From contig CAJINV010000004.1 in NCBI GenBank assembly GCA_905178155.1, positions 8,145,239-8,209,238 on the forward strand: DNA of 64,000 nucleotides, read 5' to 3'. Of the stretch, positions 1-62,100 are shown piece by piece. Source of the DNA: Amoebophrya sp. A120 (Eukaryota; Protista; Dinoflagellata). The notes below the pieces were generated by a model. That model saw only the letters and a list, made by a program, of their open reading frames with translations. It made no database searches and was not told where the DNA came from. The translations under genes and the position numbers were made by a program. The stretch's first letter is position 1, and the number at the start of each line of letters is the position of its first letter.

Positions 1-3000
1 TTGCAATGCATAGACCCAACGGCGAATCTGCTCGCCCCGTTACAAGAGCTGTTGGACTCGGGGAAAGTGCAGTGGCGACAGACGATCGAGGGCGAGATCT
101 GCGACCAAAGGGAGTACTTGCTGATGTCGGACGATAAAAATTCTATCACAGACGACAACCATGGCAGCAACAGCAACACCACAAAGTCTTTTTTAGAAAA
201 AAACGACAACACCTGCAATTTGGTTCAGATCCAAGACTACAAAACGTCATTGAACAAGCTCCCGACGAACCAGACCTTCGACATTTTACTTGCCGATTTC
301 CGCTACACGAACTGCGAAGAAGAGCTAGCTGTTATCGTAAGGAAAAATCCCCCCTCCCCATCTTGAAAAGAAAATTTGTGATGCTGATTTGTGACCACAA
401 ATCAGCTTTGTCTTGCGTACAAGGCAAACGGCACCCATGTGGCGCATTGGAAAGCGAGTCTGTCATCCGTTTTCGCCTATGGCAGACTTGTTTCCCATGC
501 TCATCTGCTAGCCGGGTGAGTAGTCACATGGGCTCAGAATCTGCCGGCAACCTGTTGCTGCAATACAAAGCTCATTTGTGTACACAAATCCAGCAACACA
601 AATTGTCTTTTGAATATGAGGTGGAGCTTTTTTCACTTTGATAGCCGCCCTCGCCTCCCGCTGCCACGGAGTTCTACTGCTCGCGACGCTGCATATCAAA
701 TGCAAATATGTCTGGGTCTGGAAACTTGTGATGCTAAAACGTGGATGATAGAAACAGTCCCGAATGCAACCCAGCATGACAACTTTCTAGAACGCTTTCT
801 CATAGGAAATCCGCATGAGAAACTGCGTTTTTGTATGTACAAAAGAGGCCGCGACTTTTGCTGGTTACGCAATACAGATTTCCTAGGTATCGAAAGCAAG
901 CATTACAAGTTCCAACCCTCCAGACCCAGACATATTTGCATTTGATACTGCACAAAGTCGAGCAGCTCCCCGGGTTCGAAAAGTCGGATTTGCTGGACAG
1001 CGTCCGCGCGGAGGCCCTCGGTTTTTTCACCTCCAATGGCGACCGGGAGCCGGAAAGGACGAAATCTATCAAATGCAAAAATGTCTGGGTCTGGGAGATC
1101 GCGAGACTTGTCATGCTACTCTGGCATGACACTGGAATCTGTGTTGCGTAGCCGCATAGAGCTCCTCTTCCTTGTCATGCAAAAACGCAGTTTCTCATGC
1201 GGAGGACGCAATTCAGAACCACGAAAAAACTTGTCATGCTTGGCAGCGCATTACAGCGTGCTCGCTATTCCTTTCCTTGCATCACAAGTTTCAAGACCCA
1301 GACATATTTGCAATGCATAAAGTCCCATTGGAGACGAATGCGGGCGAAGGGGGTGGCGCACTTGGAGAAGCAAACGATCCACAAACACCAGTTTTTCCGC
1401 AGTTACCTTTATCAAATGCAAATATGTCTGGTTCTGGAAGGGTGTAAGTTGTAATGCTGCATTTGGATTCCAAAAAAAATCTGTGTTGCAGGAATAGCAA
1501 AAGGGGTGCGTTTTTTGCCACGCGGAGGGAGTATTTCTCATGCAGTATGGGCATCAGAAAGCCGTCACAATATCTGTGACGCTAGGGCATGCATCACAGA
1601 CATCGCCGGTGATACAAAATGTGCATGACAAACTTCCAGACCCAGACATGTTTGCAAGGTCAGTTCAAATTTCAGTACATAGTTCCTCTCATGCTCCATG
1701 TCATAAATGCTTCCCGATAAATCGATGATCTAGTAGTACTTTACTTTATTTACCTATAGCTCATGATGATTCTTACCCGAATGCTATAATAGTTGTTAAT
1801 CTAGTTTTTAATGCGCATTTGGGGGAAGGGTCATGAACGGTAGTAGTGTCAGCGAATAGTAGTGAGCATGCACCCACGGTGTGCTATTCGCACGGCCATG
1901 GCACTACTGCGCGAGCACCCACAGGCTCCCAGGTGCCTAGCGCTTTGGCCAGCGTAGCACCTCGGTAGAGCTTGCGGGACCCCGTGGGCAGAAGTTCATA
2001 GCACCCAATTTGTACGTTGCGCAAGTGATATTATAAGTAGTAATAGTTAGTTCCACCGGTGGACATATTAGCATGCTTAATCTCTCTCTAAATAGTGCAA
2101 ACACGTAGTTCTCTTTTATTTTCTTTCTTCATAAAGTTCAAGTCGTTCTCTTCCCTGTGCTGTACCAAGGTCTTGTTTCCAGACAAAACACCAGACATGT
2201 TTGCAATGCATAACCTCTCTGTCTGGGCGAAACAAGAATTCGCGGAAACGATCAAAAAGAACTACTCCCCCACGACAGAGGACAACTTCGACAGTTTGGT
2301 TCCCGACTTTGACAATGCAAATGACGAGTTATTCCTCTCCCGCCAGGGCTCGGCGGTTTCCGATTTGTACCGGGAAAAATCCGGGATGGTATCCGGAGGA
2401 AAAACGTCCCCACCCAGAGAGTCCTCAAGCTGGGGATTTTGCAGTACGCAAACCCACAGGATTTGGCTGTCGGGCATGACAAGTTTGGGTCTCTTGTGTA
2501 GATAGTCGTGGGTGGCTAGTTCTGAGGTCACATCACAAATCTAGCTCCTTATCCTGATTAGCGCAGGAGTCCTGCGCTAAAAAACATAGGAGTCATGCAT
2601 ATTTGGGACTTTGTCCTGCGGCAGGACAAAGTCCCAAATATGCATGACAATAAATCTGGGGTGGGGACGTAGTTTTTCCCAACGATAGGTGGCTGCTGCT
2701 GTTGGTCAACAAGTGAATCACAACCAGCAAACGACCGTGTACTACCAGGACGACAGCATTCTCGCCAGCTACTACGAGTTTCACTTTGGAAAAGTCCTCC
2801 CCCTCCGCGTCCCTAACTTCCCCGCGGCGACGTCTTCCTTTTGCTTGGAAATGTGCGAGAAATACGGTTCGAAATTGAATCTCGCGATGGACGCGGGTTG
2901 CGGGCCGGGGAGGTCGGCCTTTGAACTGCTTGCCGGAACAAGGGGTGGTGGAAACAGTGGCACCAACGGGTTTGCGAAGGTGGAAGCGTTCGATTACGCG

Positions 3001-4037
3001 GAAGGGTTTGTGGACATGCTGAAGCAGGAGCAGGCGAGGCTCGGTATTCCGGAAGAAAGATTGGCATCCTACCAGGGCGACGCGCATCTGTTGGCGGAGA
3101 TCTGCAAGAACCCGTATTGGATTTTTTTTTTGCTGTAAGTTTTCGGTAGGCTTTTTGTCTTTGTCATGCAAGAATTGCATGTTGGGTCGTCTTTCTGTTG
3201 CGGGAACTCCAATACACGTAAAAAAACAGCCTCGGCACCTACGATCTAGTCTCCGGCTGCAACTTGATTGACCGATTACACGATCCAATGCAGTATTTGC
3301 AAGCGTGCAAGAAGTTGGTGAATCCTGACAAAGGACTCATCATTCACTGCTCACCGTACACCTGTTATGCAAGCAGAGGAATAGGATTTTGTACCGGACT
3401 GTCCGGTACATTAGAGTAAAGAAAGAAATTGTCCGACAATTCCTTTCTTGACTTTGTCATGCATAAAACCATCGGCTTGCGACTTTGTTATGACGCAGTG
3501 ATCCGTGATACGCATTCTGTTTTCCAAAACTTCGTGGCAAAACGCATCACAATAAGACAATTTATGACGTCTCCGAACAAAATCCTCCCTCCCGCCCCCG
3601 TCATACTCCGAAGCCCGAGCATACGGAGATCGAGAAGTGGGTCGGCGGGAAATTCACGCCCCAGATGGAGAAGTTGTTCACCGAGCAGGCGTTGCAGGAG
3701 TTTATGGAGAAGGATAACGAATTTAAGCTTGTCGAAACCCGCAAGATCCCCTTTGTCATCCCCGATACGGATGGCTCATTTCAATATCGCAAGAAAAAAC
3801 TGCTTCACTGTAAACTTGTAATGCAGAAAATGGATCTGAGAAGTATCTGTCTTGGTACATATGCAAGACAATGGATTTTCACCTGTGTTTTTCATTAGGA
3901 ATCTCGCATGGCAAATTTTCTCGGTGCTGTAGAACAAACTTGTGATGCAAAACTTGCAAAACCCTTACAGTGTAACACTTTTTCCGTGCGATATTCAATT
4001 TACGTTCTCGAACGCCACGGTTTTTCAGCGGATATAG
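1..4037 (+). CDS. OvoA-like (ovothiol biosynthesis) protein, 3' part, with two tandem SAM-dependent methyltransferase domains; 5' end lies outside the window; 8 introns
   Basis: Joined exons read ...LQELLDSGKVQWRQTIEGEI...HQFFRSYLSVW (degenerate MTase). They continue YYQDDSILASYYEFHFG..VPNFP..MDAGCGPGRSAFEL..YQGDAHLL..YDLVSGCNLIDRLHDP..SPYTW.PEHTEIEKWVGG..IPFVIPDTDGSFQFTFSNATVFQRI*, matching the OvoA C-terminal 4-mercaptohistidine N-methyltransferase. There are 7 TIR introns and one GT-AG intron (3114-3229). Confidence 0.8.
333..643. mobile_element. Introner family B
   Basis: TATCGTAAGGAAAAATCCCCC...TTTGATA; DR gctgt/gccgc; frame restored. Confidence 0.8.
694..947. mobile_element. Introner family A
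   Basis: TATCAAATGCAAATATGTCTGGGTCTGG...CCAGACCCAGACATATTTGCATTTGATA; DR ctgca/ctgca. Confidence 0.95.
1067..1319. mobile_element. Introner family A
   Basis: Family A TIRs; DR aaatc/aagtc. Confidence 0.9.
1410..2212. mobile_element. Introner family A carrying a nested 533-bp insertion
   Basis: Left TIR at 1410, right end TGCATA at 2212; DR acctt/acctc; frame restored (RSYL-SVWAKQE). Confidence 0.85.
1658..2190. mobile_element. Insertion flanked by a 16-bp duplication, inside the right TIR of an introner
   Basis: CCAGACATGTTTGCAA at 1642-1657 and again at 2191-2206. Confidence 0.65.
2390..2687. mobile_element. Introner family C (internally rearranged, with two palindromes)
   Basis: TATCCGGAGGAAAAACGTCCCCACCCAGA...TCTGGGGTGGGGACGT..GATA; DR gatgg/ggtgg. 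Confidence 0.85.
3366..3605. mobile_element. Degenerate TIR intron (singleton)
   Basis: TATG..GGATTTTGT..CGGA / TCCGAACAAAATCC..CATA; DR degenerate (cctgt/ctccg); interrupts the conserved SPYTW motif. Confidence 0.7.
3785..3993. mobile_element. Introner family F
   Basis: TATCGCAAGAAAAAACTGCTTCACTGTAA...TTACAGTGTAACACTTTTTCCGTGCGATA; DR ttcaa/ttcaa. Confidence 0.9.
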
Positions 4038-5255: not shown

Positions 5256-5283
5256 GCCCGCCAGGATTCAAGTCACAGAATCT

Positions 5284-20009: not shown

Positions 20010-22117
20010 ATGCAGAAAATTTGGGACCGCCTGCCCGACGCGGATGATTTTTTCGCGTACGACACCGCGATAAGCATTGCAAATATGTCTGGATGTGGAA
20101 GAGTTCATCCAACTTGTCATGCTAAGTCTGGATCGTGCGAAAATCTGTCTTGCGTCATCACCGAAAGTTGCACTTTTTTAACCAACACGAGAGGGAGTTT
20201 CTCACGCAGGATATGCATGATAGAGACCTCGCAAAATCTGTCATGCTAGGCCCTGCATTACAGAGCTCCTTCGGCCTGGAAATTCTGCATGGCAAGTTTG
20301 TGTCCTTCCAAAGGACCAGGACATATTTGCATTTCATACGCGAAGGAAGTCCGTGTCCTCGACCGGCGGCTGGGGCTGGTTTACTACACGGTGTTGAACC
20401 TCATCCTCTTCTACGTGTTGATCTACGTTTTCATGATCGAGAAGAAGTACCAGGAAAACGAAAAATCTATGGGCTGGGTCGTCTCCCGGGCCAGCGGCTA
20501 CAGTAACTTGGAGGAGGCGGCGAAGCAGGCCGCACTCCCACCCTTGGACTTGTTCGACTTGTCCGGGTATGAATTGCAAAAATGTCTGGGTCTGGAAGAT
20601 TGCAACTTGTCATGGTAAATCTGAAGCATGCAAAAATCTGTGTTGCATGAGTGCCAAAAGCTGTGCACTTTTGACCAAGTTGGAAGGGAGTTTCTCATGC
20701 AGGATAGGCATGGCAGAGACCTCGCAGCGTCTGTCATGCTAAGTCCAGCATTCCAGACCTCATGGGTCATGGAAAATCTGCATGACAAGTCTACACTTCT
20801 CCAGACCCAGACATTTCTGCATTTTATACCGGGCCGGGGGCGAGCTCGGAAGGGGAAGTGAACGCGGCGTTTTTGCCGACCAGGGTGCTGTACACGAAGG
20901 GACAGGAGAACAAAAACACCAATTCCGACGCGGACTTCTGCGCCAGTCCGTCGCACCCCTGCACTTCCCCGGCAGATTGCGAGATTGAGAACCCGGAGCT
21001 GCAGAAAGGTATACTACTACCACATATGCTTGATGCAGCAAAGTCAGCAATAACAAAGCTGTCTGTCATGCGTGTTAGTACTAGACAGCACGTGACAAAA
21101 ATACTCAAATCCTCCTTCAAACCCACACCACTAGGTGACCAATGCACCGGCGGTTTCTGCATGCGGCGGCAGTGGTGCCCGGCGGAGTGCGACCCGGTCG
21201 CGAACCCGAGCTGCGCCACGACCCAGGAGCTGCTGATTGACCCGTCGGGCTACGAGCTGCGGTTCCAGACGTCCGTGCACTTTCACAAGTTTCAGATGGA
21301 CGTCTCAACGATGGAAGAAAAGGAGGCGATTGTGTATCCGAAAAAAAAAGCAAACGTGTACAAGCTCCGGGATCTGCTCCGAATGGCCAACGTGGACACG
21401 AAAAAGGTGCAGAGCCACGGTGTGGTGATACTGGTGACGCTGGTATGGGAAGGGAAGGTTGCATGTATTCAATTATTTGTGTTGCATGTATTCAATTATG
21501 TGAAACTTATACAGCATAAGTGCGGTCCAAGTTTGTACCAAGTTTGTCATGCAAAAACTGTTTGAGGAGGACTGGACAAAAACGTATTTGCACTGCAGAA
21601 ACACAAATTTCTTCGTTCTCCATACGATCTCTTTGACTGCGAAATGGACGATGACACGTGCTCCAGTAAATTGGAGTCCGTCCACGTGGACAGCAAAACT
21701 GGGTACTGGGGTTTTTGTCATGCAGAACTAGTAGAGTGGTTGGCGTTTGTCATGCAGAAAACACAACATTGCGGTCTGCCTAAGCTTCGTTTGTGATGCG
21801 GCATCTGCATGAGATGAAAGAGGAGTTTAATTATTCAAAAATAACGTACCTACAGGTACAACTACGCGCGCTCCGTGTACTACAGCGACGCTAACGTTGA
21901 AAAGCGCGATCTCGTCCGGTTTTTCGGCGTCCGGGTCGCTTTGCAGGCCGTTGGGGACGGAGCGAAACGGAGTTTCAGCATGATCGTGCTGCAGGTGTCC
22001 TCGGCTATTGCACTTCTCGCGGTCGCGCGCACCGCCGCGGACTTTTTTCTGGAAAAGGTCGTGCCGGAGAGGAGGCACTATGTGGCTCAGAAGGTGCTGG
22101 AAGTGGAGGACTTTTAG
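20010..22117 (+). CDS. P2X: P2X-type ATP-gated ion channel, 5 introns
   Basis: FFAYDTAKEVRVLDRRLG (YxTxK), TM1, EKKYQ, FCMRRQWCPAE, LFDCEMD, GYNYARSVYY, RDLVRFFGVR, TM2 and YVAQK (YxxxK). Confidence 0.9.
20071..20338. mobile_element. Introner family A (degenerate, left end TAA)
   Basis: Family A-like TIRs; DR cgcga/cgcga; splits the YDTAK motif. Confidence 0.9.
20568..20828. mobile_element. Introner family A
   Basis: Family A TIRs; DR ccggg/ccggg. Confidence 0.95.
21444..21624. mobile_element. Degenerate TIR intron (singleton)
   Basis: TATGGGAAGGGAAG...CTTCGTTCTCCATA; DR lost, but removing the element plus 5 nt restores VTLLFDC. Confidence 0.65.
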
Positions 22118-23333: not shown

Positions 23334-26300
23334 ATGGCGCGGCCGGTGGACGAGAATGACCTGACCAACGCCATTATCAAAAGGAAAAATCCGCCCTCCC
23401 CAGATCGAGAAGGAAATCTGTGATGCTGGATTTGCGTACACAAATCAAATTTGTCTTGCAGTACAGGACTGCAGGCCAATATCAAGCCAATATAGAGGGG
23501 TTTTGGCCTAGGCAGTTAGCATGAGGAACGTCTATGCTGTAGGCCCAACAGCATTACAAACCGCCTGCGTGATAATGGGGTGGAGCATATGCCGTTGCTT
23601 TCTTGCAACACAGACGCGATTTGAGGCCACAGATCAGCATCACAAATTTTCTGCGGCGTGCCTTTTTGATGTGGGGAGGGGGGATTTTTCCTTACGATAG
23701 CCATGGACCTGCTTCGGCAGGAGATGAACTCCGTGCAAGACAAGGCGTTGAAGCTGGTACAGAGTTGCTGCTTGTCGTGCGTATGAACGTAGCAGAAAAG
23801 GAGATTGTCTTGCATTGTCCGCATAGTAGAAACGCATCGTTAATACAGAAGTACCCGCATGACAACCCAAAATGATCCGACAGGTCGACAAGAAGATGGG
23901 TGGTATGATCACGGAGAAGGCAACAAGCTTGATGTCAGTTATGGAACACAGAATGGTTTGTTCTTTTCAACATTACAGACTTATTTTGTACAGTCTGAAG
24001 GTTGCATGACTTCTCGCTCAGCATGACAAACTTCATCACGCAATGTCAATGACATCGGTCAGCATGACAAAAAACTCCGAAAAGAAACATCAAACCTGAT
24101 TTCTATTCCATACCCGACGTGATGACGTCCGTCGATGCGAAGCAACAGAAAATGATGAAAACCATCGAGGCAAAATTTAACTCAACGGAGAAAGCGATAG
24201 GGATAAAGATAAAAGAAGGCGACGACAGACTCGGCGACAGGATAGACGACACAAATCGGGAATTAGCAACAACAAGACACGATTTGGCGAGAAATGTATT
24301 CATACGTATGGAGATTTGAAGATTTGATGTCGCCTCTTCAACCGCATGACAGATGACAATTGTATATGCGTAAAGAACTATATTACCACGACTGTAGAAG
24401 TAGTAGAGAAATTGAATTTTCCAGGTGCAAGAGCTGAAGAACATGATGGCAGAGCTGCGGCAAGAAACCCAGGACTCCCTCAACGACTTCAGAGAGCACG
24501 TCGACGCCGCACTGGCACAAGCTAACAAGCAGGGGGAAGACACGGCGAAACGGTTAGAAGAGGTCAACCAGATTTTGGAAGACGCCCTCGCGGAGATGAG
24601 AAAAAACCACGACATAGTGAACACGCGATTGGACGGTATGGATTGGTCTTTTTGTTGAATTTTATGTTGCGGGAGAATGGAAGTCAAACACTGCATGGTG
24701 TTGGAACATTGGGTTAAGTTTAGGCGCATGGAGGTGAAAAACAAATGGGCCACATGACGAACCACCATCATACTTATTTCAGGTCTGATCATGTACCAGC
24801 GGCAGCTCGAGCAGGATTTATTCGCGTGTGAAAACGTCGCGGCCAGAAGAGTGGAGTGGGAAATCACGGACGCAAAACGACTCTTGCTCGCGAGCAGAAG
24901 AATAGCACTCGCCTCTACCATATGTCTTGTAAAAATGTCTGGGTCTGGAAGATCGCTGAGGTTTGTGATGCTGTGCCTGCTTGACACGGAAGGTGTGCCA
25001 TGCAAGGCCTAGCATCACAGGTTTTTGAGGCGGTTCGAAAGAAGGTGTTTGTCATGCGGGTTAAGCATTGGGAAACGGGTGTTTTTCCCAATGCTTAACC
25101 CGCATGACAAACACCTTCTTTCGGCGACAGGAAAAGGAGCTCCCTTTGCTGTTTAAGCACGACAGATTTTTGTGTGATCCAAGTGTGCGTCACAAGGTCG
25201 CATCCTTCCAGACCCAGACATTTTTGCATTTCATATACCACCGTGCAGGGGACGCCCAGGCAGTCGTTTTTCTCACCGCCCTTCTCCGCAGCGGGGGTGA
25301 GGAATCTGCAAATCGAGTTGGCGGTGAAATTTAAACAGGCACCCAGCAAAGCCGCAACCAGCGATGTACACATCGGGGAGGCGCACATCTATTTGTGGGC
25401 GCCGAAGGGGACACATGTGTGGTTCAGGCTGTACTTGAACGACATGGTCAAGACATTTGAAGGTATTGGGATGATATTAATGTGTTTGAAAATCACACAT
25501 GTGAACCAGATGAGAAGGGCATTTTCTGCACCACCACAAAAATCCTATCAGGAACCTACCCCTCCCGACAGCCGGTCGGCGGTTTTTTCGGCGACATAGA
25601 CGTGCCAGTCAAGCAGCCAGCCGACGACTTCAAAATGCTGATCACGCTCGAGGTCAGCGAGTCAAAGGTGGTCCAGAGACACGAGATCGCACCCTATGTC
25701 GCGGTGAACGCCCAGGACGGAATCAGCTGCTCTGGAAACCTGTATTTTAGTCGACACGTGAATCACAGGCTGTTGGACCAGGTAAATTGGTGATGTTGTT
25801 CTTGTCCATCTGTTCTACTTTTCATTAAGACCGCTTGTTCATATGTAGTCAAACCGTTGGACCTTCGTCAACCAAAACTCTCAAGATCCGTTCCTTGACC
25901 AGGAGGAAATCGAAAACCTCTAAAATCTGCACCATGGAAATTCCATTAGATCCTTTTGAAAAAGAACCGGAGCGGTTATCTCACTGAAGCGAATTTTCCC
26001 AGTTTCGCGCTAAGTGTCAGGCCGCTCCAAAAATGAATCTCTTGCCTAGTTTCTTAACTGCTTCGGCTCTTTTTCGTGCTGAATCCGCAGTTGCTTAGCT
26101 AGGCGACACTGATCTGTGATTTTAGCTGTTATAGTTCTGCTACACAGAGGAACTGGTACTACAGCCCCAGCACGGTTGTGGTGATGTCCACCAACATGAT
26201 TATTACCCTTTTCAAGGCTTAATCTTTTCCAAGATTCAAAAGTCTGTGACGACCAAAACACTGAGACATACGTATGACTTCCGCACTATCAACACTCTTT

Positions 26301-28802: not shown

Positions 28803-31800
28803 ATGTCGCCTTCGTTCCTTCCGTCGTCCCAAGGACGGTTCAATTTTTGCGTGTCTTTGTTCCTAGTGACCTCTCTAGCTGTCCATTTGTACCTCGCCCC
28901 GACTGCAAACGCCCAGTTCGTGTCCGGCGAGCATCAGCAGTTCCACATAATCAAACCAGGCGGCCCCTCTCCGCCGGTGATTCATCCCGACCAGGCCTCC
29001 GACCCGTCCGTCATTCCGCACATCCAGACCCAAATCGTGACCTACTACCACATATGGATTGCAAATATGTCTGGGTTTGGAAAGTTGTAATGCTGCGTTG
29101 GGAATCGTGAGTGCTCTGTCATGCACAGCCAAGCATGAGAAATATCTGCGCTTCTTTGTGTTGCGCTTTTCGCGTGGCAAACTGCGTTTTTGCATGACAG
29201 GCAAGAGGGTCTCTTCTTGGACACGCGTGACAAACTTTTTGGTCATGCCGGACAAGCATGACAAAACTCGCAATCTTCCAGACCCAGACATGTTTGCAAT
29301 CCATACCACAATGAGCAAACGAAGGCGCAACACGCGTCCAGTTCCATCGACGCAGTGTGTGGTGCGGCGGCTGCTCCGCCCTTTTACAGCGAGGGGCGGG
29401 ACGAGGCGAGATTGCAGTGGACGACGACGAGTAGCACGGGGAAAAGAAAAGCAGATGCGGAACAGAAAATCGGGGAGATAGAAGACGGGGTCCGGAGTCT
29501 CGCCAAATTGGAGCTCAATGTTACTACCGCGGAAGAGGACGGTGGTGGAACATCAAAGGCGGTTATTGATGAGGAGCTTCTTCTCCGCTTGTACCTACAC
29601 TACAGTACTAACAGGAAAATAAACGGCGCCACCACCAGCGATGTTGAAACATATCAAGTGTAAAAATGTCTGGGTCTGGAAGAATGCGCGACTTGTCATG
29701 CAGATTTTCCATGATCCATGAGGTCTGGCATGCAGGACCTAGCATGACAGATTCTGTGCGATCTCTCTCATGCCTATCCTGCATGAGAAATCCCCTCCCG
29801 ACGTGGTCAAAACTGGACGACTTTTGGTAATCATGCAACACAGATTTTTACATGCTTCAGATTTAGCATGACAAGTTGCATTCTTCCAGACCCAGACACT
29901 TTTACATTTGATAAAACAGACGCACCAACAACAGCCGCCGTCACCGAGCTCCAAACCCAGTTGTCTCAAGTCCTCCAGCTAGATCAGCCGTCGTTGCTCA
30001 TATGAAATGCAAAAATGTCTGGGTCTGGAAGAGTGCGAACTTGTGATGCGTGTTGCGGATCATACAGAAATCTGTGTTGCATGACTTGCAAAAGGTCCCC
30101 ATTTTTCGCCATGCTGAGAGGGCATCTCTCATGCATAATGGGCATCACCAACGGGCTGCAGAACCTGTGATGCTAGGCCCTGCATTCCAGACTTGGCGGA
30201 GCTTGGAAAAACTGCATGACAAATCTCGGAATCTTCCAGACCCAGACACTTTTACATTTGATAGCTCACCCAATTACTCGACACGGTAGGAAACGACAAG
30301 GTGAAACAACTCAGGAAACAAACCCTAGACGCTTGCCTCATCCTCGCTATCTTTGAGGCGGTGCTTGATAAAGAACGAGATGAACCCAGCGATAATTACA
30401 ATCTCGCAAGACCAAGGGGACCAGATGAGGTGTTCTTTCACAAGAAAGCAAACGTCGATTACATCGAGCAGCTCCACCAAAGCGCGCTGTTTCTCTGGCG
30501 ATCGCACTTCGCCAAATCGCAGTATAAGGAGCACCGGTGTCGGCACTTTTTCCTCGCGAAGCAAATCCAGAAGGACGCCGAGGAGTTTCGCGTGGCGGCG
30601 AACCGCACACTCTGGATCGCCGCGAGCGCAGCGAGGAAAAATGAGCAAGGGCAGCATCTCAACTTAGAAGAAGTGAAAACAACCACCACCTACGGTGCCT
30701 TATGCATAGCAAATACGTGTCTGGCTCTGGAAAGAATGGAACTTGTGATGCAAACTTTTAATCACGCGAAAACCTGTATTGTATGAGCAGCAAATAAAGC
30801 GCTCAGATTTTTGCCACCTCCCGGACAGGAGAGCATTTCTCATGCAGGATGGGCATGAGCAGGCCTTCGCAAAAGCTGTGTTGACGCTAGAGCATGCATC
30901 ACAGACATCGCGGGTCATGTACAAGCTGCATGACAAATTTCCCAATCTTCTCCAGACCCAGACATATTTGCATTTGATACGCCTCCCTCGCCACGTATGC
31001 CACCTTCTACGCCACCACCCTCGCCGCCTCCCCGGAATGGTCGGGGCAAAACCGAGATTTGCTCGAGCTGCAGCTTTACCAGCCGAGCTACATGCGGTGC
31101 TACTCCAGGTTGGCCTTTGTCCGGCCTCCGATCTTCGTCTGGCCCGTGATGTGGAGCACGAGTATCGCGTACCAACGGCTACGGGACGACCCGGTGGCGA
31201 GTCCGAAGGAAGTTATGGCACTCTCAAACGTTACATGTTACATGAATTTGTCATGCAAAACCACCATCATCATCCACACGATCAAGCTGCGTCGCGTGAC
31301 AAATCTGCGAAGGGCTAAACAGCACCTAAATCTGCGCGAAATTTGTAATACTAAATGTGCAGCCTCCCCATCTTTGACTTTTGCTATTCTTGCATCACAA
31401 ATTCGTGTAGCAGTTGAGAGCGTAACGGTTGAGAACGCCATAGAAGTCGGCCACACTGTCGGCGGGCACGAGGCCCACGCGACGCGCACCGGGAAGTTCT
31501 GGGTATCAAATGCAAAAATGTCTGCGTCTGGAAGAGGAGAAGTTTGTCATGCACGTTTTCCATGGTCCATGAGGTCTCTGATGTATGCTATAGCATCACA
31601 GATTTTTTGAGCGCCTATCGATGCGCATCCTGCATGACAAATGCACTCTCCGCGTAGCCAAATTTGACTCCTGTTGCTGCTCATACAATACACATTTTTT
31701 TCGCATCCAAATGCAGCATCACAAGTTAGGCTCTTCCAGACCCAGACATAGTTGCAATCCATACTGGGACTCGACCTACAATTTCTTCGTCACACCGAGC

Positions 31801-40032: not shown

Positions 40033-42700
40033 ATGCCAAAATGCAAGAACTTCCTCCTGCCTAAGAACTCTTTCCCCGCCTGTTATACCCTGCAGTCCAG
40101 CAGCAGTAACGAGCCTGCAGACGACTCGCGAGGCGGCCCACCGCACCAGAACCCTCCGTATCAAATGCAAAAATGTCTGGGTCTGGAAGATTGCGAGATT
40201 TGTCATGCTTGTCTGGCATGACCAACAAGTTTGTAATGCGTGTTCAAGAAGGGATCCTTTTGCCTGTCATGCAAAAACGCAGGTTGTCATGCGAAAAACG
40301 CAACACAAAAAAGCGCAGATATTTCTCATGCTTGCCGGTGCATTACAGAGCATTCACTATTCCCAACGCAGCATTACAAGTTTCCAGACCCAGACATTTT
40401 TGCAATTGATATCCCGCCGGGCAACACGATAACGCAGGCCGTGATGCTGCCACCCGACTTCTTTTTCGAGTCCTGGCACCACTATGACACCGACGAGTTC
40501 TTATCCTGAGGAAAAAAGCCCCCACCCGATAGTTGTCATGCAGAGTTGCATATTCCAGGAAAGTATGTAATGCGCATCCCGCCCATGAGGGGCGTTTGTA
40601 GTCGTGTAGTTTTCGCATTTGCACTGCTGTTAACAGGATGAGCAGATGGATTTGTGACGCGGCTGCCCTCGCTCACCTGCACTACAGTACAACAGAGAGA
40701 AGCTTGTCATGCGTGACTCCCGCAGCCGCTGGATTTGTGTTGCAAAGTTCCAACCTTGAGTCCAAGGTGTGGGCTCCGTTTTTGCTCCGGATAGTTCTGC
40801 CCCCAGGAACAGGAAAAAGCCGCACTGGAGGCGCTACGACAAGCGGAGGAGGAAGGGGTGGATGAGATGCATTTACGAAGTATGGGATGGGGAGGCATTT
40901 TGACTAGGTTTCAGCAGTCCCCTTGCAAGAAAGTTCTAGTCCTTGATATAAAACGGTTGTATGTAGTTCTTGTTTTGCAGCACGAGCAATCATTATCGAA
41001 AAAACATGTGTTTTGAGATCAGCGCCAAGCTAGCCAAAGTCGTTTTCCCCATTCACACTCGGGCAAAAAGAGCAGCACGAGAGGACAAAAAGGGGTGAGC
41101 AGGAGCCGATGATCGCACTGAAGGTACCATTTCCAGTATCCAAGAAAAAAACTGTGTAAGTGCGACTTTGTGTTGCAGACGATGCAAGACGATTACAACT
41201 GTCATCCTGGACATGCATTAGACGCTGTTTTCGCACGTGTTTTCACGTACTAGGTACGCATGACAGGTTTTCTCTGTCATGCAGAGCAAACTTGTGATGC
41301 TGTTTTTTCCAAGGAAGTTACACTTACACAAATTTTTTCTTGCATATCAAGCAGGAGGCCGCGCGAGCAAGTACCCAAGAATAACCTATAGCCTGCCGAC
41401 AGGTATGAGATTTATTGATGCCACAGGTTGTTATTGTTTGTCTTCACATTTTGTTCCAACCGATCATGTGTTGCTTTGTCATTCATGTTCCTCCATGCCA
41501 TGGCAGATGAGGCTCCAGAATTTCTAAATTCGATCACGCACGAAAGCAAAATGATGGAATTATCAACTACATACAGGTCACAACTACAAGAAAGAAGACG
41601 TCGCGAGCATGCGTGCGGTGCACAGTGTATGGGAAGAGTGAAAAAAATGGTTGTGCCAGACATATATTGTTCATCATAAGTCGCAAATTAGAATTTGCCC
41701 GCGGCTAAGAACTCGAACTTTGTCATGCAACTCCTAAATGTCAAGATCTATGTGACAGCCCTTTGAGAGGAGATTGGAGCAGTTTTTCCAGTCCATACAC
41801 ACTCTACACGGCGTTTCGGCAAGACACCTCTTTCTGCCACAAGTACCGGATCATCGGTTCCGCGCTGCACCCAAAATACCCCGGCACGCTCCTGGTATTA
41901 TACTGCTTTTTGTAGATAGTTGTTGAAAGAAATTGAAATTTGTTGTTTTCTCCCCTTGTGTTTGTGATGCGGATTTTGCATGAGGATTCTGTAATGCGTG
42001 GACGTAATTTCAGTGCCAATTCTCAGGTTCTCGTGCACGGTGAAGACGAGCACTAATATGGGTATCAAATGCAAAAGTGTCTGGGTCTGGAAACTTGTGA
42101 TACTGGGTGGCGTATCATGAGGAGGCCACAAGTGCTGGCTCAGCATGACAAGTTTCTGAGGAGCTTCTAGGTGTTGCCTATTCTGCATGACAAACTGCGT
42201 TTCTGCATGACAGAAAAATGGGGCTCTTGGATAATGTGCACGACAAATTCAAGATTCATGTGAGACAAGCATGACAAACTTGCATTCTTCCAGCCCCCGA
42301 CATTTTTGCACTTGATAATGGCATTGAAAAAGCAATCGGTCTCCTTTCAGCTCGTACATATGATTTAGCAAGTCACCATCCGGAATAATTCTCTTCTGTC
42401 ATGCAGTCGTGCATCACGATAAGAAAATCGGTTTTGTTGTCAATCTATTAGGAGCTGAGAAAGAAAAAGCCGAGTAGTTTTTTTCAACCCCACATTCCCG
42501 TACCAGAGTACTGGCCCGAGCACGTGAACCATGCTATGCAGCCGCTACCCATGGTGTCTTGCCGTTATTTCTACTGCATGGAAAAAATGTAGTTGCACTT
42601 TGTCATGCAGAAATACCGGCAAGACAAACACCTCTTCTCCATACGTTGCGATATGGAAATTTGCCAGGAAACCTATAACAAGCACCCAGTGGACAAGAAT
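40033..42700 (+). CDS. Hypothetical multi-exon protein (many short exons; ends uncertain)
   Basis: Frame restored across the 40159 and 40502 elements (PGNTITQAVMLPPDFFFESWHHYDTDEFCPQEQEKAALEAL); later exons such as LYTAFRQDTSFCHKYRIIGSALHPKYPG. Confidence 0.5.
40159..40411. mobile_element. Introner family A
   Basis: Family A TIRs; DR ctccg/tcccg. Confidence 0.9.
40502..40793. mobile_element. Introner family C
   Basis: Family C TIRs; DR gttct/gttct. Confidence 0.9.
42063..42317. mobile_element. Introner family A
   Basis: Family A TIRs; DR atggg/atggc. Confidence 0.9.
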
Positions 42701-43538
42701 ATGCTAGGGCAAATCGCTTGAAGTTGAACTGAGTTGAAATTTGCCATATGGAACAAGCTGCAGATTTTTCGTAGGCGATTTTGTAGTTTATCCCTATTTC
42801 CTTTCAACTTTACCTGCACGCCTGAAGTTCTTCGGATTCTTGCGCTAATTTTCTTAGCAGGTCTTCGTCGAACAACACTCTACTACACTTATCACGATTT
42901 GCGTTGCATAACACACTTCCTAAGGCTAGAAATCTTTTTCGAGCACGACGCGCAAATACGAAGAAACAAACATTCTGAGCCCCCGACCTCGTCATAGATT
43001 TACTTGCAGCCACCATCGAAGCTAGAATGCTGGACCGACGTGTGAAAAAGTATGTATCTATTAACCAATCTAGAATGCTAAAACGAGAAAAAAATGCATC
43101 CTTCATCCAAGCCGACCGCTACTAAAATGTTTGTTTTCCCTGCCACATACGATCATGATCGACAACTGTTTGTCGCACGGCAAGGGGATCCCGCCACGAG
43201 TATCCGAAATGTAGTCAGTAGCGTGTAGTGTCAGTACTTGTACAATGTGTCTTGCATAATTAGATGACAGCACGACCAGAACGACCGAACAAGAAGAACG
43301 TTTTTCAGTGCGGATATTTTTTACTGTTTCCTCACACGGTCCACGCGTTTGTTGTGTCAGTCTCCTTTGCGTTGAAAACAAGCTGATGTGTAAGTACTCG
43401 ATCTGCAAAAAGACGCGTTACAAGCACGCCTACACGCTCATCCTCCGCCCGGGTCATAAGCGTACCTGTGGATGCATAGGGTGTTGACCTTGCGTCGGGC
43501 GTTACCGACACACCAGGTAGTACGTGTTGTGTAACGTT

Positions 43539-43602
43539 CAATTTGAATTTGTAATGCATGTTTTCCATCTCAATTTGAATTTGTAATGCATGTTTTCCAT
43601 CT
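43539..43602. repeat. 32-bp perfect tandem duplication
   Basis: CAATTTGAATTTGTAATGCATGTTTTCCATCT twice. Confidence 0.9.
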
Positions 43603-43670
43603 GAATCGATCATGAATTATGCTTTCTTGATGCTAAAACAACAGGAACAAGTCGCGAATGTGGGAAAGGC

Positions 43671-43952
43671 TATTCTGAGTAAAACCGTCCCCACCCCAGA
43701 GTTGTCATGCAATTCTGCATGCGAAAAAAGGTTCTCATGCGGAGCCCTATGAGAAGCATTTTCCATTTGTGTTTTTGAATTTGTGATGCTAGAATCAGCA
43801 TGCTAAGCTAGATCTTTGATGCTTCTGAACTAGCTAAACAGGACGATAACACTACGAGGACAAACTTGTCATGCCAGACGACCAAGGCTGGCTGATTTGT
43901 CTAGCAGATTTCCCGTCTTGACTCTGGTGTGGGGACGCTTTCAATCAGGATA
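43671..43952. mobile_element. Introner family C (host gene unclear)
   Basis: Family C TIRs; DR aaggc/aaggc. Confidence 0.9.
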
Positions 43953-45314
43953 AAGGCTTTGTTGCGGTTAGCGTTGGCCGTCGGTGATTTAGGATTCGCG
44001 ACTACTCAACATCGCGTTTTCTTCTTTATTTCCAACTTGTCATGCACGTTTTGCATGATTTGATACTTGCAAGAATCAGTGTACGTGCTTTCCTCTTGTC
44101 AATAGAAGTGTTCTGTCACGAAGAGTAAAAAGCGAGTGTTGACCACATCCTGTGCATACGCAGATGCGGCGCACGAGGCGGACGCGGCAGAGTTGCTGGA
44201 AGTCTTCTGCCACTGAAAGAAATTATCAGCGTTACTTTCTCGTCGAGTCAATTTTTGTAATAGCAAACGAAAGCAGGTAGAGTTTCGAAGAAAACAATTT
44301 TATGCAACCTAGGTCATGTCACAGCAAAAAAATCACACCTAAGATTATCGAACAGCAATTGAGAGTCAGAAGCCAAATTGGCTTATGCAGAGGTCGTCTT
44401 ACTATGCACAGAGAGATAGACGTGTTTTTTTTTTCACCGTATAGCTGCAGCTTGTAGTTACAGCTAATTGATTTAGCTTTTTTTGAGAAGTTTCCAAGCC
44501 GAAAGTTTCGATCTACGCAAATTATCCTTTGTAGAAATTTTGATTGAAATGGAATTCACCTAAGTAAAATGTCTTCACACGGGGTAATACTTGGCGAGCA
44601 CACTAGACTTGCAAAAACGAGTCGTCTGCTCCAGCCAGGAGCGGTAGCACCGCCACTAGTTTCTTATACCTAAAAATGCAAACCTGTAATCTATACCATT
44701 GTGATTCATCGAACAGGATGCCTCATCTTCTTCCGAAGAAATTTAGCGCTCGCCTGCTGATGATTTGGATCGGGCGTCAAGAGCAGCTCTTGACAACTCG
44801 TGATGAGCTCAGTTCAGCACGAGTTTTGTAGTTCTACAGCATTACAACCTTAAAGAAAAACCGTGTTCATCAGTGCCTGGCGGACAACCGCGCTCAGCTG
44901 AGTCTCCACACTGTACGCTCTTTACCATGCTGACAAGGACCGGAAATTCCGGAAATTAATCCTGATCCCTGTCTGGTGAGACAGACTTGATGCCGCAACG
45001 CCAAAAAAACGTCGTCGTGCTCTGCTTCTTCTGACTAAAACCGTACTACATGTTCCATCGTAAGATCAATTTCAGTTGTTCCTTTCTCTACCACTTTATC
45101 TCAGCGGCTGTATAGTGATGTGACAAACGAGACACTATCTGTAGCTGCCTTTTTCGTAATAGTGTCAGATTTGAGATATTTTTAGCCTCAAGTAACATAA
45201 TAGAATTTAGTTTCAAATTGGCAAAAAGTGTTGCCCTGCCCACGATGCGCAAAACCAAATCATGTTGCGCGCCGCAGGGCAACTACGACGTGAATTGCCC
45301 AGCCTCGGAGTTGG

Positions 45315-54300: not shown

Positions 54301-57300
54301 TCACAGGTCCTGCAGCTCCTTGGTGATGCGTATTCTGCATGAGAAATGCCCTCTCTGCATGGCCAGAAGTGGGCACCTTTTGCACGTTCTGCATGACAGA
54401 TCTCTGTAGGATCCGAAACACGCATCACAAGTTCGGATCCGTCCAGACCCATACATATTTGCATTTGATAGGCTCGAAAATCACACGACCGGCGTACCTG
54501 GAAGGGATCGATTCGTGTTTGACCGGTAGTAACAAACGGCAGTTGATTCAGCAAGCCGCGATCCACTACTTGAAGCGAAAAGGGGCGAGTACCTTGGAAA
54601 AGATCCTCCAGTTCAACAGCGCGTGCCTATTGTGAGGAAAAATGTCCCCTCCCCGTATTGAAAGCGCATCCATCTGAAAACTTGTGATGCAGATTTGTGA
54701 CCACAAATCGCGTCTGTCTTGCAAGAAGGCTGTCCGAAACGTTATGCAGGCGATTTGTAATGCTGTAGGGCCGACAAGGCAGCCGTCTGCCGTGCTAGGC
54801 GCCTACACCAAAAGGCCCCTACCTAGGCTTGCGATCTGCGTGCAGTGCTCTAGTGCAACACAAATTTGATTTGTGTACTCAAATACAGCATCACAGATTT
54901 CGTTTTCTATATAGGCAGGGGGGATTTTTCCTTTTGATAGTGCTGGGGCTTCCCTTTCAACCGAGCTGTGCGGAAAGTTACGGTGCTGGAGCTGCGGCGG
55001 AGCGGCGCGTTCCCGTACATTGTCACGTGGAAGAAGCAGCAGGAAGTGAAGCAGGCGAATGGAGGAGACATGAATCAGCCCGACGCGAACGATGCGGTCG
55101 GCAAGGTCTTGGCGAAAAGTGGGGCGACTTTGACGGAACTGATGGCGGCGCACAAGTCAACCCTGATACAGACATTCAGCTACCCAAGCTTACAGCAGGC
55201 GATCGTGAGCCATGGGACAAACTTCTTGCGCCAACAACCACTGGCTGTAAAGACTAGTGGTACCGTGGCATACACCAGGACGAGCAAGGCGAGGTATGTG
55301 CTTTCCTCCGGGATTGGAAGATCATCGCAGCTGTATAGGACCCAACCTCCACACGAGATGAACAAACAAGCAAACAAAGTCCACCTGATGTCGAAGTTTT
55401 CGAACCAGCAACATGCAACTACCTCAAATAGAACTACTGCATCAAACGCAACTGCGCCACCCACCACCACTATCCCACGAAGAAAACTGTTTCACTGTGA
55501 TGATTTTGCAAGGTCTGCATCACAAGTTTGTTACGCATGACAGAGAAAACTTGGCATGCGTGCTTCCTAAGGGAAAACACAGCTAAAAATCCCATGTCTT
55601 GCATGTGTAGCAAGACAAATAGTTCTGTGTTCCATTTTCTGCATCACAGGTTTACACTGAAACAGTTTTTTCTTGCGATAATCACCATTTCCTCCCTCCC
55701 GGCCCTGTACGGCAGCCAAACGAGCTATGGAAGCGTCAGGATTGAAATCGTCAAAGTTGAAATTATTTGTGATGCATAAAATCGATACCAGCTGGAAGCC
55801 CAATTTCCCAGCGGCGCATGACAAATTTCGGCACCGTCTAAAGCCAGTTTGTCATGTTGTTTAGGGACAGAAGGCGCCTTTTGTCATGCTACTTTAGCAG
55901 CTCTATTCCAACCCCGAAACAGGCTCACAACCAGCCTCATTTGCCATCCCTGCAAGAGAGGCACTTCATGCCTTGCAATTTCTGCATGAGAAATTATTTC
56001 AACTTTGAGGATTTCAATCCTGACGCTTCCATACGAGCAGTCCTGAGTACCGCCTGCAAAAATTCCTCCTCACACCCTTCACTTGGTCGGATAAGCAGAG
56101 CTTACTCTCCGAAACTTGCCTCCGGTTCGCCTTTATGCTGCACAACGTGAAAGACCGCATCGCGGACCCGCGGGAACGGAAGCAATTCGAAAATTTCCTC
56201 CAGAAAGAACTCGCCGGGAAAAACTTGTGGCTGCTGCAGGCATTGTATGAGAGTGCACAATCCCCGTCCCCCTGATTTGTCATGCAAAGTACAAAGTTGC
56301 GCCTGGCCTATAGGCACTGTCTGCATGAGAAGTTCACTGGCAGCTCAAATAGCACTACAATCCTGTGCAAATTTGTCATGCAAAACCTGTATTCTTGCTG
56401 GCGCTTGTCCTGCCGTTTATGCAATACAAATGGGGGGGAGGGGGGCTATGTGCACATTCATACGTTGAAGCTCCCGATGATGCACCAACTGAAGGAGTTC
56501 GACGCGAATAACGGGTCGTATTACCTCCAACAACCGCGGCTCCTCCCCTATCACATGCAAAAATGTCTGGGTCTGGAAACTTGTAATGCTAAAAGTGGAT
56601 GATAGCCGGACTGCAATACGCAGCCAAGCATGACAAATTTTTGAGCTGCTATGTGTTGCGTATTCCGCATGAGAAACAACGTCTTCACATGACAGATAGG
56701 AGAGCCTTTTCGTGCCCATGCATCACAGATTCTCGAGTCTGTAGTGTCAGACATGCATGACGAATGTAAGAATCTTCCAGACCCAGACATATTTGCAATC
56801 CATATTCCCTCCGGCGAGACGAATTTCGCACGGCTCGCCCAGTACCACGGTTTACCCATGCCCGAGCCAAGCTGCCTGGCGAAAGCGGCGTTGCGAAATC
56901 AGCAGAGCAAGCGCCCGCTGCTGCTCTCGTCGTCGACGAGGATGCTGAATAACCCAGAGCTGTACAACAAAGCCCAAATGACCGGGTTTACCCCGGGCAT
57001 GAACCCGGATCTACACAAAGAACCGGACAAGCAGAAGCTGGAAGAACAGGCGGCGCGCATCGCCGCGAAGTCGTGGCTCGAGAAGTGCATGAACGTGCTG
57101 GGGCACATGCGGCTGGAGGCGCCGCACGATTACAGCAAGTTTGACGTGAACGTGCTGAACCAAATCCGGTCGCAGTACGCGTCCGAAGGGCCGCAGAAGG
57201 TGGAAAAGTTCATTCAGAAGTACCAGAAGACCATCCGGCCAAACCAACCGATCGACTTGATGGAGATCCGGACGAAACTGAAAAATTCCAACCCCCGTAT

Positions 57301-59152: not shown

Positions 59153-62100
59153 ATGGACCGCCGGCGCAATTCTCCGGTCGTCCTCAAGCGACGCAGATCG
59201 CGTCGCAGAGAAGAAAGACGGGAAGACAGGGATAGCAGACCACGTACTTATTTGTTTTCATAGCAGAACTTTATCCGCAGAATTTGCCATGCACGAAATG
59301 CGTTTTAGTTGGTCTTTGTCATGGGAAAAAGAAAACTACAGGTTGTGTACAGAACGGAAACGCAGCTTCTGTTGCATGGTTTGAAAGATTCTACTAAAAA
59401 AAAACAGGTCGCCGCGACCGGTCCCGGCGCGACCGTTCCCGCCGGCGCGATGACAGGTCTCGCAGAAGGTCCCGGCGACGCCGCGGGAACAACGACAGGC
59501 GCGAGCACGAGCGATCCCGGGAACGCAGCCGCGACCGAAATAATCGGAGCCGAGCCAACAGTAAGGAGAACAGCAGAAGGGACAATAACCAAGACGAAAA
59601 CAACAACAACAGCAACCGGGACCAGCGACTCCAACCCGTCTCTCGTTCGGAAAACAACAACAACAATAACCGAGCACAGAAGAAGAAGACCAAACGCGGC
59701 GGGCAGAAGCACCGGGGAGGGCAACAGATGAAGAACGATTTTGTCGAGGGGCAGGAACTGAAAAAATTCTTCGTCACGAACAACGACTGCGCCCGGATAC
59801 TGGGGCAGAAAGCGAAAATTATGAAGGAGGTGGAGATGGAGTGCGGCGGGGACATCATGGTGCAAAACCGAAAGGACGCGGAAAAAAGCGGGTCCCAATT
59901 TCGATTCATCCAGATTATCGGACTGCCGCACCAAATCGCAAAGGCCGAGGAACTTTTCCTGCCGTGGTGCGACTACTTCGCCCGGGAGGATAACGTATTG
60001 TGACTAGGAAAGAGATTTTCAATACTTTGGTTCCAGAAATGATTTCTCATGCGAAGATTGCTAGTAGATGACTAGATTTGTTTTTGGTGCGCAGCTCACG
60101 GTGCCAAATCTTCTTCTCCATTTCCGAAGTGAATCACGTCAAAAAAAAACACCAATGCAACAGACCGTCCTGAAAGACGTGCGCGGCACGCCAGAAGCAC
60201 AGGCACGACAGAAGGAGGAGCCTGTTCGACCGCAGAAGATTCGGCTTTTCCTTGAAATTAAAAACGAGGAAATAGGCAGGATAGTGGGAAAGAGAGGGAC
60301 GCTCATTCGCGAGATGGAGGTCCTTATTATAGGCTACAGAGTTCTTTTTTGTCCACCTGGATAAAATGTTTTTATAGTTGTAATAGATGAACATTTATTC
60401 CTGTTATGCATAAATTTGGCACGACATCGATCGTCGCCACTATGTAGTTTGTGATGCGAAAATAAAATCTTGCGTCGAACAAACATTCTCGAAATCAACA
60501 GGACGAGACCAACACGAAAATCGAGATTGACAAGGGCGCCAACGTCGTGGAAATCGTCGGTGACAGCGACGGGGATTGCGAACGGGCCCAGAACAGCATT
60601 CTCCACGAGGTCTCGTGGTTATCCTGAGTAAAAACGTCCCCACCCCAGAGTTGTCATGCAAATTTGCATGCCAAAAAAGTTTCTCATGCAAGGTCCCATG
60701 AGAAGCTTTTTCTCCCCGTGTTTTGGGATTTGTGATGCTACAAATAGCATCATATGCTAGATCTGTGTTGCTGCTGAACTAGCTACTCAGGATCACACTA
60801 CGAGGACAAACTTGTCATGCGAAACAGCCAAAGTTGGCCGATTTGTCTAGCAGATTCTCCATCTTGACTCTGGTATGGGGACGCTTTTCCTCAGGATAGT
60901 GGTGCCGAAATCGCGACACCGGGGAAGTTTTGAAGCGCGACTCCTTCCCTGGGCGAGACGGAATGGACCGAGCGTATTGAAATTACAGGTTTTTTGTTCT
61001 TTATGCATCTTCTTCACAGTCTGTTGACTGGTCCTCACAACTTGTCGTGTGTACATTTGCTCGCCCGGGAGGTGGACGACGAGAGGTTGTCACAACATTG
61101 CGCCATTCTATAGTATTCTAGCGATCATAGAATTCTTCTTCTTGTTCGTCCCACCACCAGCAAAACAACCGAAAGAAAAAAAAACAGACCCTACCGTGAC
61201 GAACCCATCGTGATGCTAATTCTGGACAAAGAAGCGGGTCGGGTCATAGGCCGCGGGGGCGAGGTTATTCGGGAAATTATGGACCTATGAAATGCAAAAA
61301 TGTCTGGGTCTGGAAGGATGCAAGGTTTGTCATGCACATTTTGCATGAGCCCTGATGTCTGTGATGCATGCCCTAGCGTCACAGATTTTGTGAGGGCTTT
61401 CTGATGCCTATACCGCATGAGAAATGCCCTCTCGCAATGGAAAAAACTGGACCTCTTTTGCTGTTCATGCAATACAGATTTTTGTAGAATCCAGCTGCAG
61501 CATCACAAGTTCGCATCCGTCCAGACCCAGACATTTTTGCATTTGATAGGACCGCTCCGGAGCCGACGTTCGGGTCGAGAAGTCCGAAGCAATATGCATT
61601 GCAAAAGTATCCGATACTAGTATGAATTGCAATACAAATTTCCTCAGCATGAGAAATGAAATTCGTAATGCGGATTTAACTTGAGAAAAAAATTTGTAAT
61701 GCATGTGCATGAATGGGATCATTATTACGAGTTTCCGATACTTTTGCACAGGATAAACAATTTGTGGCGACAACGACGTGTGCCAGATCCCGCACGAACG
61801 CCGCGTCGAAGTATTTTTGGAAATTTGTAATCCTAACGCGAACTGGAAAGTGAATTTGTAATGCTAGTAGCGCAAGTCAGTAAGTATGCATAAATACGAA
61901 TGCAGTACGTGTCGCCTTAGAATGCATGACAAAGGACCCAAACTGCTCTCCTTCACACTCCAGATCTTCGGCCGGTCGCAGCGCGTCAAGGAGCACGCCC
62001 GGGACCTGATTCTCCACGAAATCGGGTTTGCAAAAGACGAAGCGGGCAACGTCATCAAGGACGATCCAGATTTCGAAGACAAGGAAAGAAAACGAAAGGG

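Follow-up and report, generated by a model that had tools for sequence, protein, structure and literature searches.

The stretch analysed here (the window, 64,000 nucleotides of contig CAJINV010000004.1 from the dinoflagellate Amoebophrya sp. A120, positions 8,145,239 to 8,209,238) carries modelled genes, all on the + strand, that are interrupted by short elements bounded by terminal inverted repeats (TIRs). These elements are 110-350 bp in size, and 51 copies from eight families were curated in the window (Table 1), with TIRs that open with TAT and close with ATA. They were compared with related DNA from at least 147 loci of the metagenome assembly JACKZZ01, selected by the end pattern of family A and amounting to about 612 kb once merged, and all the counts given here rest on the window and on these loci. 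The JACKZZ01 copies are up to 96.7% identical to window elements among the matches listed, and the RPB1 of this assembly is alveolate-like. Altogether, 564 elements were grouped into 15 clusters of at least three members (522 copies), which differ in their inner TIRs and share a 10-bp internal motif whose arrangement suggests binding by a protein dimer on double-stranded DNA.

The element start follows the pattern TAT-N7-AAA, and a logo of 1128 ends gives frequencies of.99, 1.0 and.98 for the initial T, A and T, and of.86-.93 for A at positions 11-13. A 5-bp target duplication flanks the elements, being perfect in 390 of 518 calls made by a detector that rewards duplications, and in 226 of the 279 family members within genes. 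In cluster C0, with length modes of 252 and 262, and in C3, both arms of the TIR (positions 5-16) agree above shuffles at some variable positions (181 vs 125 at position 14 of C0), which suggests either selection for pairing or arm homogenisation. The end pattern (TAT, seven variable bases, AAA), the short direct repeats and the non-canonical splicing match those of the A120 introners as described in the available text of PMC7789003. Also, among the family lengths listed from PMC12130899 (22 of 58 rows), 149, 208 and 252-260 match C2, C3 and C0, and 278, 305 and 319-322 match C1, C5/C11 and C4; most of the matching families are classed there as TIR DNA elements of unknown superfamily. The elements as such are already known, whereas the shared motif and its phase appear to be new: the internal motif, lattice or phase is unmentioned in the available text, figures aside, of PMC7789003, PMC12130899, PMC9860276, PMC11282704 and PMC11453091, and searches of supplement text and of the literature brought up neither an internal motif nor a phase.

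The consensus of the motif is YYTGT[CGA][AT]TGC. Exact counts in the window are 75 for TTGT[CG]ATGC and 49 for GCAT[CG]ACAA, and a matrix trained on the window finds 361 sites of at least 10 bits, against 48-64 in three Markov-3 controls. The motif is present in all 51 window elements and in every one of the 15 cluster consensuses. At a threshold of at least 11 bits, its density is 16.8/kb in the window elements and 16.5/kb in 343 JACKZZ01 elements, 342 of which have at least one site (754 sense, 709 antisense). For GT-AG introns, 99 were considered, 13 supported by RNA and 86 predicted by gene models, after setting aside 7 of 93 predictions with element homology; the density is 3.9/kb in the former (8/13 positive; shuffles 0.8) and 2.3/kb in the latter (28/86). 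Intergenic DNA shows 0.5-0.6/kb (72 sites vs 25-36, a two- to three-fold enrichment) and coding DNA 0.2-0.3/kb, near shuffles, with 3 sites in 16.6 kb of the window against 3.2. A fixed-pattern search agrees with these matrix densities. The initial annotation, made by eye on the window, had placed the motif in all element families and found it nearly absent from exons; both statements hold, coding DNA being at chance, and the enrichment in introns that it had proposed to check is observed across the window and the loci.

The same annotation described inverted pairs about 7-10 nt apart, and this holds only in part. No exact inverted pair with a 7-10-nt spacer exists in the window, where the seven exact inverted pairs found within 60 nt are separated by spacers of 39-46, and the exact pairs in JACKZZ01 comprise 2 inverted at N6-8, 33 direct at N22-24 and 41 inverted at N39-40. 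When up to two mismatches are allowed, inverted N7 pairs are real (18, against 0.01 by chance), but direct N22-24 pairs are commoner (68, against 28 inverted at N6-8 and 25 inverted at N39-40). The places cited as examples show the same mixture. In the predicted GT-AG intron 3114-3229, positions 3161-3183 hold one full site and a 5-nt half site at N7, with a direct partner 32 bp further on; 21715-21810, in an RNA-supported intron, combines a direct 32-bp pair with a degenerate N7 pair; and 27105-27132, within a predicted intron, is an inverted pair at N10. The pair at 59283-59325 does lie in an RNA-supported intron on the + strand, being direct at 32 bp and not inverted, whereas 41274-41300 is a direct pair within a TIR element (41137-41346) and belongs to no GT-AG intron.

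Across the 15 consensuses, the gaps between adjacent sites, centre to centre, fall at 15-17 and 46-50 for inverted neighbours and at 31-33 for direct ones (17/56 gaps), that is, site direction alternates about every 16 bp, inverted at 16 and 48 bp and direct at 31-33 bp. A phase score that expects whole helical turns between sites on the same strand and half turns between inverted ones has its maximum, 0.575, at a period of 10.4 bp and is -0.10 at 11 bp; the best of 1000 random placements, scanned over a coarser period grid than the real sites, reached 0.28. Moreover, without the 31-33 pairs the remaining 39 adjacent gaps are still phased (Rayleigh p ~1e-4, the families not being independent). 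The array is also set at a fixed distance and phase from the element ends, the first inward site being found at 36-37 bp (149 ends), 44-48 bp (389 ends) or 59 bp (22 ends), in steps of one helical turn. The termini themselves are motif copies at 128 of 1044 ends (23 in shuffles), confined to four of the 15 families, and in C2 and C12 this terminal copy is 31 bp from the next site. The spacers between paired sites are unrelated from family to family.

These features suggest that the motif is the half-site of a sequence-specific dimer that binds double-stranded DNA, and that introners use the arrays for their mobilization, a reading to which we give a probability of about 0.6. We infer that the N7 palindrome of the initial annotation corresponds to a single dimer site within a 32-bp-repeat lattice on one face of B-form DNA. 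Dimers would sit on this helix face with the 32-bp repeat, and their array could scaffold the paired-end complex of very short elements. A single protein would serve all families, and the family-specific inner TIR would mainly provide a stem for splicing. The candidate binder may be the transposase that these elements lack, a domesticated version of it or a cofactor supplied by the host, and its sites in GT-AG introns suggest a host use too. A site for a dimeric DNA-binding protein had been one of the options in the initial annotation, and the 10.4-bp phase, the fixed end offsets and the conservation between lineages support it and would likely tie it to transposition.

The way in which sites are conserved also bears on this reading. 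In 363 elements with perfect duplications, private changes affect 2.9% of core positions, 4.9% of TIR positions and 7.4% of other internal positions, the core being conserved 2.5-fold over its neighbours. The neutral change after insertion, estimated from the duplications, is about 4.0% (37/920 sites facing codon positions 1-2), with 8.8% at position 3. From perfect to badly decayed duplications (14 old elements), change increases from 3.2 to 7.8% in the core and from 7.7 to 11.8% at other positions, while site density, 21.8/kb among 254 young copies, drops to 6-7/kb among 22 old orphan introns (most of them predicted), 7 of which have no 11-bit site. Since the core changes at about the neutral rate, constraint would act mostly while lineages transpose and little after insertion. 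Conservation across lineages together with an apparently near-neutral decay after insertion, estimated at low power and with redundant sites as a confounder, would favour a role in transposition.

Splicing of the elements was followed through joints in contigs of the putative RNA runs X3, X4 and X7 (one sample), among the joints listed (15 of 59 in one listing). At least four young elements show joints that skip the element plus 5 nt, as for the family A copy 61286-61548, family B (60614>60899 and 43664>43952) and family F (61589>61758, for the element 61593-61755). In four old elements with decayed duplications the cut precedes TAT by 1 nt and follows ATA by 4 nt, with three unambiguous joints and one that is ambiguous by 1 nt. 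These young and old borders, exactly cut out, are non-GT-AG, and removing elements by the -1/+4 rule brings back reading frames of 383-1571 codons; most introns of the window are made by these elements. It is the element ends that set the splicing, and the motif is not required for it, because the old intron 43200-43462 (joint 43199>43463, same end rule) is spliced with no strong site and 7 of the 22 old orphans lack any. This does not support the proposal that the motif is a signal needed to define introns lacking GT-AG. The family F copy at 49796-49953 has predicted GT-AG splicing (49795-49956, gene model only), and with borders that now read GT...AG it likely represents a step from a non-canonical to a canonical intron. 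The raw RNA reads X9 and X10 match only element ends (window 53094-53178 and 51598-51655) at 90-95% and continue into other sequence, which likely reflects a different strain with related families in its transcripts.

Several points weigh against the mobilization reading. Eleven of the 15 families have no terminal motif copy, off-phase gaps exist (same-strand 18, 39 and 49; outward 33-34), and the 15 families are not mutually independent. Three of the four RNA-supported old non-canonical introns retain a site of 15-17 bits, and array redundancy could hide that the host needs one or two of them. Decay was estimated only roughly, a first duplication-mismatch clock by class being uninformative and the old class with relatives comprising 14 elements. 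Also, no transposase or binding protein was found in the window and the JACKZZ01 loci. Pfam detected no transposase, including IS3-like DDE, in 33 window frames and the 118 longest of 390 locus frames, and long TIR-bounded candidates of 972 bp and 631 bp hold no frame above 86 codons. The 972-bp one is a family A element (L053, 8001-8972) with perfect TIRs, located near RPB1, whose interior of about 700 bp has no strong site or long frame. A 6.2-kb candidate for an autonomous element was rejected, being by eye parts of two short elements. Three motif scans of viral contigs gave 0, 2 and 0 matches, the two being one chance site within a reading frame. Another locus (L013, 635-4090) carries two adjoining frames with C-5 cytosine methylase domains. 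The A120 genome paper, in its available text, also reports no transposase (PMC7789003).

The remaining points against the mobilization reading come from the GT-AG introns, where the same spacing is enriched without element traces, so that the motif is not confined to elements and their relics. Without homology to elements, 36 of the 99 GT-AG introns have a site of at least 11 bits and 63 have none, and TIR remnants are no more frequent in 31 motif-positive than in 52 motif-negative introns; the intron 21703-21855, for example, has neither TIR remnant nor element homology. In an unbiased ranking, the three most enriched 7-mers of the 99 introns are the motif (CATGACA, 29 vs 4.5). Sites of at least 13 bits number 0.34 per intron (98 introns), whereas simulated relics, once their homology is gone, have 0.044 at most; the simulation covers uniform decay of whole elements, and unsampled TIR-less donors and captured internal fragments lie beyond it. 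Moreover, a spacing of 31-33 bp is seen in 7 of 20 same-strand pairs (null mean 0.79; 0/20,000 reach 7), one of the seven being a local tandem duplication (43517-43644), and an inverted half site at N7 follows 6 of 49 strong sites. GT-AG introns therefore keep the motif, and both its spacings, far above neutral relics, an outcome not expected if its role were purely at the transposon level. One option of the initial annotation took the motif as evidence that most introns derive from the elements, which does not agree with positive introns free of TIR remnant or homology and with the 63 introns lacking a site; its suggestion of selection, from the persistence of the motif in introns with decayed TIRs, is supported by the relic simulation in so far as the presence in TIR-less GT-AG introns is non-neutral. 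Most simply, this would mean that sites for this protein are retained by the host as well. The 3' ends of the GT-AG introns of the window (e.g., 59244-59407 and 60974-61187) are A/C-rich before CAG and have no pyrimidine tract, and most of the introns start with GTAT or GTAC.

A first alternative is that the motif is primarily a host intron mark, where a host DNA-binding protein on intronic sites would promote co-transcriptional splicing or polymerase pausing, and introners would have spread by carrying many sites, being marked in either orientation. The 7-mer ranking, the excess over simulated relics, the 31-33-bp pairs, the positive introns without TIR remnant and a GT-AG density (2.3-3.9/kb) higher than the intergenic one would be expected from it, as would a splicing apparatus in which U1 small nuclear RNA (snRNA) went undetected in both A25 and A120, according to the available text of PMC7789003. 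However, many introns do without the mark (63/99 GT-AG introns, 7/22 old orphans and the spliced 43200-43462), 86 of the 99 GT-AG introns come from gene models alone, and the phase with element ends and the near-neutral decay better fit mobilization, making this alternative unlikely. A wider scheme, in which a host or domesticated protein polymerizes on intronic DNA with a 32-bp repeat, marks introns on the DNA for splicing in this lineage reported without U1 snRNA, mobilizes introners through their phased arrays, attracts new copies to the side of old ones and licenses them as introns in either orientation, is put forward as a tentative proposal that we consider unlikely.

A second possibility would be a general host chromatin protein whose sites organize or bend non-coding DNA, with elements gaining indirectly, for instance by insertions being drawn beside bound arrays. 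Intergenic sites are indeed enriched two- to three-fold, and, of 262 exons lying between two elements, 128 measure 30-85 nt (52 expected) and 11 fall below 30 nt (34 expected). Also, an element lies within 85 nt at 14/53 flanks of motif-positive GT-AG introns vs 12/95 other flanks (p 0.04). Nonetheless, the intergenic density is 30-fold under that of elements and may stem from unrecognised introns, the exon-length test assumes uniform insertion, and the fixed end offsets imply coupling to end recognition, so we consider this explanation improbable. Exon lengths between two elements, in the window and the loci, give the impression that new elements insert just beside old ones; they show no peak at 150-200 nt and no clear helical phase.

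Much less probable is a signal at the RNA level, such as a short hairpin, a branch-point-like sequence or an snRNA target. It would account for the sense bias of GT-AG sites (36 vs 12, although shuffles give ~3.8 vs 2.4 and the bias is partly compositional) and for the long hairpins formed by consensus RNAs, in which inverted sites are often paired. On the other hand, all six strong sites of C1 are on one strand, yet its copies are 18 vs 22 in the two gene orientations, the other large families being also near even, and the core decays alike on the two strands (3.0% and 3.2%). The compensatory changes between partner sites that the initial annotation proposed to look for are absent, since the variable centres of symmetric partners match in 60 of 200 C0 copies, with 90 in shuffles. 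Exact N6-8 palindromes are nearly absent, the phase is 10.4 and not 11, and GT-AG sites spread over 18-210 nt from the 3' splice site without any peak near it. Because elements are inserted both ways round and inverted sites show no covariation, the data point to a motif that acts on double-stranded DNA rather than as an RNA hairpin or branch signal, and the short hairpin of the initial annotation is not upheld. Finally, inheritance without function from one ancestral element plus internal duplication, as in the tandem 32-bp pair of 43517-43644 and the relatedness of some families, is the least credible explanation, given the unrelated spacers of paired sites, the 2.5-fold conservation of the core and the phase that survives removal of the 31-33 pairs.

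The preferred reading, a dimer site used in mobilization, has counterparts in known systems, described here from the available text of the sources. Subterminal motifs of miniature inverted-repeat transposable elements are bound cooperatively in Emigrant/Lemi1 (PMC1636448), the P element has internal 10-bp sites (PMC7776569), and Hermes (hAT) has phased repeats whose phasing matters (PMC10368747). As in these, the internal motifs of the window elements are short, face either way and keep set distances to the element ends; in the known systems they are bound cooperatively. Unlike them, families whose inner TIRs are unrelated have a single motif in common here, which extends over the entire element as a 16/32-bp lattice, is seen again in GT-AG introns of the host and is known from sequence alone; the duplication is 5 bp, compared with 8 bp in the P element. 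The ends of IS21, Mu and Tn7 share the 5-bp duplication and the repeated sites per end, DNA there being wrapped on a tetramer (PMC10122671), but these are bacterial, with CA-3' ends and 23-bp direct repeats that include the terminus, whereas the present elements have TA-3' ends and alternating half-sites. TA..TA termini are found in IS3EU/GingerRoot (TAYGG..CCRTA in fungi; PMC10045372, PMC12730594), whose enzymes are integrase-like, and integrase-like frames are reported in one A120 family. Membership was set aside because the usual duplication is 6 bp there and 5 bp here. Euglena nonconventional introns (PMC12501133) are likewise spliced at constant distances from a paired terminal motif, although with CAG/CTG and other offsets, and this likeness concerns the ends and not the internal motif. 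With respect to the A120 introners as published, with 3-5-nt repeats and variable sites (PMC7789003), the present data give a 5-bp duplication and a -1/+4 cut.

As for other features of the window, a P2X-receptor-like gene is found at 19962-22117 and a KH-domain gene with an Arg/Asp-rich start at 59153-63035. The regions 33200-34800 and 37900-39700 are GC-rich, with long frames on both strands and no Pfam match in the scanned frames, and possibly correspond to other repeats. An Rfam search of the window gave no match. Diverged local duplications are seen by eye at 16040-16450/18330-18720, 26230-26480 and 26500-26780, the last two within a 1113-nt GT-AG intron.

Table 1. Elements and motif-bearing introns in the window (> and < give site direction)
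Feature	Coordinates	Strand	Remarks
Family A (C0), example	29652..29913	.	TIR, 5-bp duplication, site map; centres 29697>, 29729>, 29746<, 29769>, 29785<, 29839<, 29870<
Family A, further copies	694-947, 1067-1319, 8207-8496, 9351-9610, 20071-20338, 20568-20828, 24921-25235, 29053-29305, 30001-30263, 30701-30979, 31504-31763, 36147-36400, 40159-40411, 42063-42317, 45608-45869, 46686-46937, 47155-47417, 51072-51335, 52793-53046, 53094-53354, 54208-54470, 56549-56804, 57719-57977, 61286-61548		
Family A, copy with decayed end	starts 1410		
Family B (C1), example	60620..60898	.	six sites on a single strand, three 30-33-bp pairs; centres 60655, 60685, 60734, 60767, 60816, 60847
Family B, further copies	2390-2687, 6241-6519, 9004-9291, 10476-10763, 40502-40793, 43671-43952, 47951-48230, 49455-49733, 51403-51686, 52223-52502		
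Family C (C4), example	23375..23699	.	sites from element start: 48>, 81>, 149<, 181<, 235<, 267<
Family C, further copies	333-643, 6800-7140, 10051-10380, 45949-46255, 54628-54939, 57298-57653		degraded ones near 5894 and 7200
Family D (C3)	41137..41346	.	dense alternating 16-bp array; contains 41274-41300
Family D, further copies	3785-3993, 55471-55680		
Family E (C5)	55726..56033	.	second copy 53578-53884, reverse orientation
Family F (C2)	61593..61755	.	terminus is a motif copy; second copy 49796-49953
Family G (C6)	56246..56462	.	
Family H (C8)	31214..31442	.	four sites, alternating at ~48 bp
Old non-canonical intron	21443..21628	+	1 nt + TAT...ATA + 4 nt, unambiguous joint; two strong sites remain
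Old non-canonical intron	23939-24116	+	two sites; joint ambiguous by 1 nt
Old non-canonical intron	43989-44162	+	one site; RNA joint
Old non-canonical intron	43200..43462	+	joint 43199>43463, same end rule; no 11-bit site
GT-AG intron	21703..21855	+	RNA joint; perfect direct pair 21719, 21751; third site 21795
GT-AG intron	43517..43644	+	RNA joint; direct pair 43553, 43585 inside local 32-bp tandem duplication
GT-AG intron	59244..59407	+	RNA joint; direct pair 59288, 59320 and a third site
GT-AG intron	61811..61963	+	RNA joint; direct 31-bp pair 61829, 61860 and an inverted site
GT-AG introns	21009..21134, 27420-27548, 59995-60163	+	RNA joints; one strong site each
GT-AG intron	60320-60501	+	RNA joint; two sites
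Predicted GT-AG intron	3114..3229	+	gene model only; direct 32-bp pair 3165, 3197
Predicted GT-AG intron	23757-23883	+	gene model only; 33-bp pair
Predicted GT-AG introns	27065-27181, 35486-35617, 41403-41576, 41895-42026	+	gene model only; with motif

How tens of thousands of introners move and are spliced in Amoebophrya is a standing question. A common phased 10-bp site would offer a bait for its protein and a signature for finding autonomous elements, and the -1/+4 rule separates the splice code, which lies in the ends, from the internal array, and should help to fix gene models. If the result on GT-AG introns holds, it would point to an intron mark at the level of DNA, which would be unusual.

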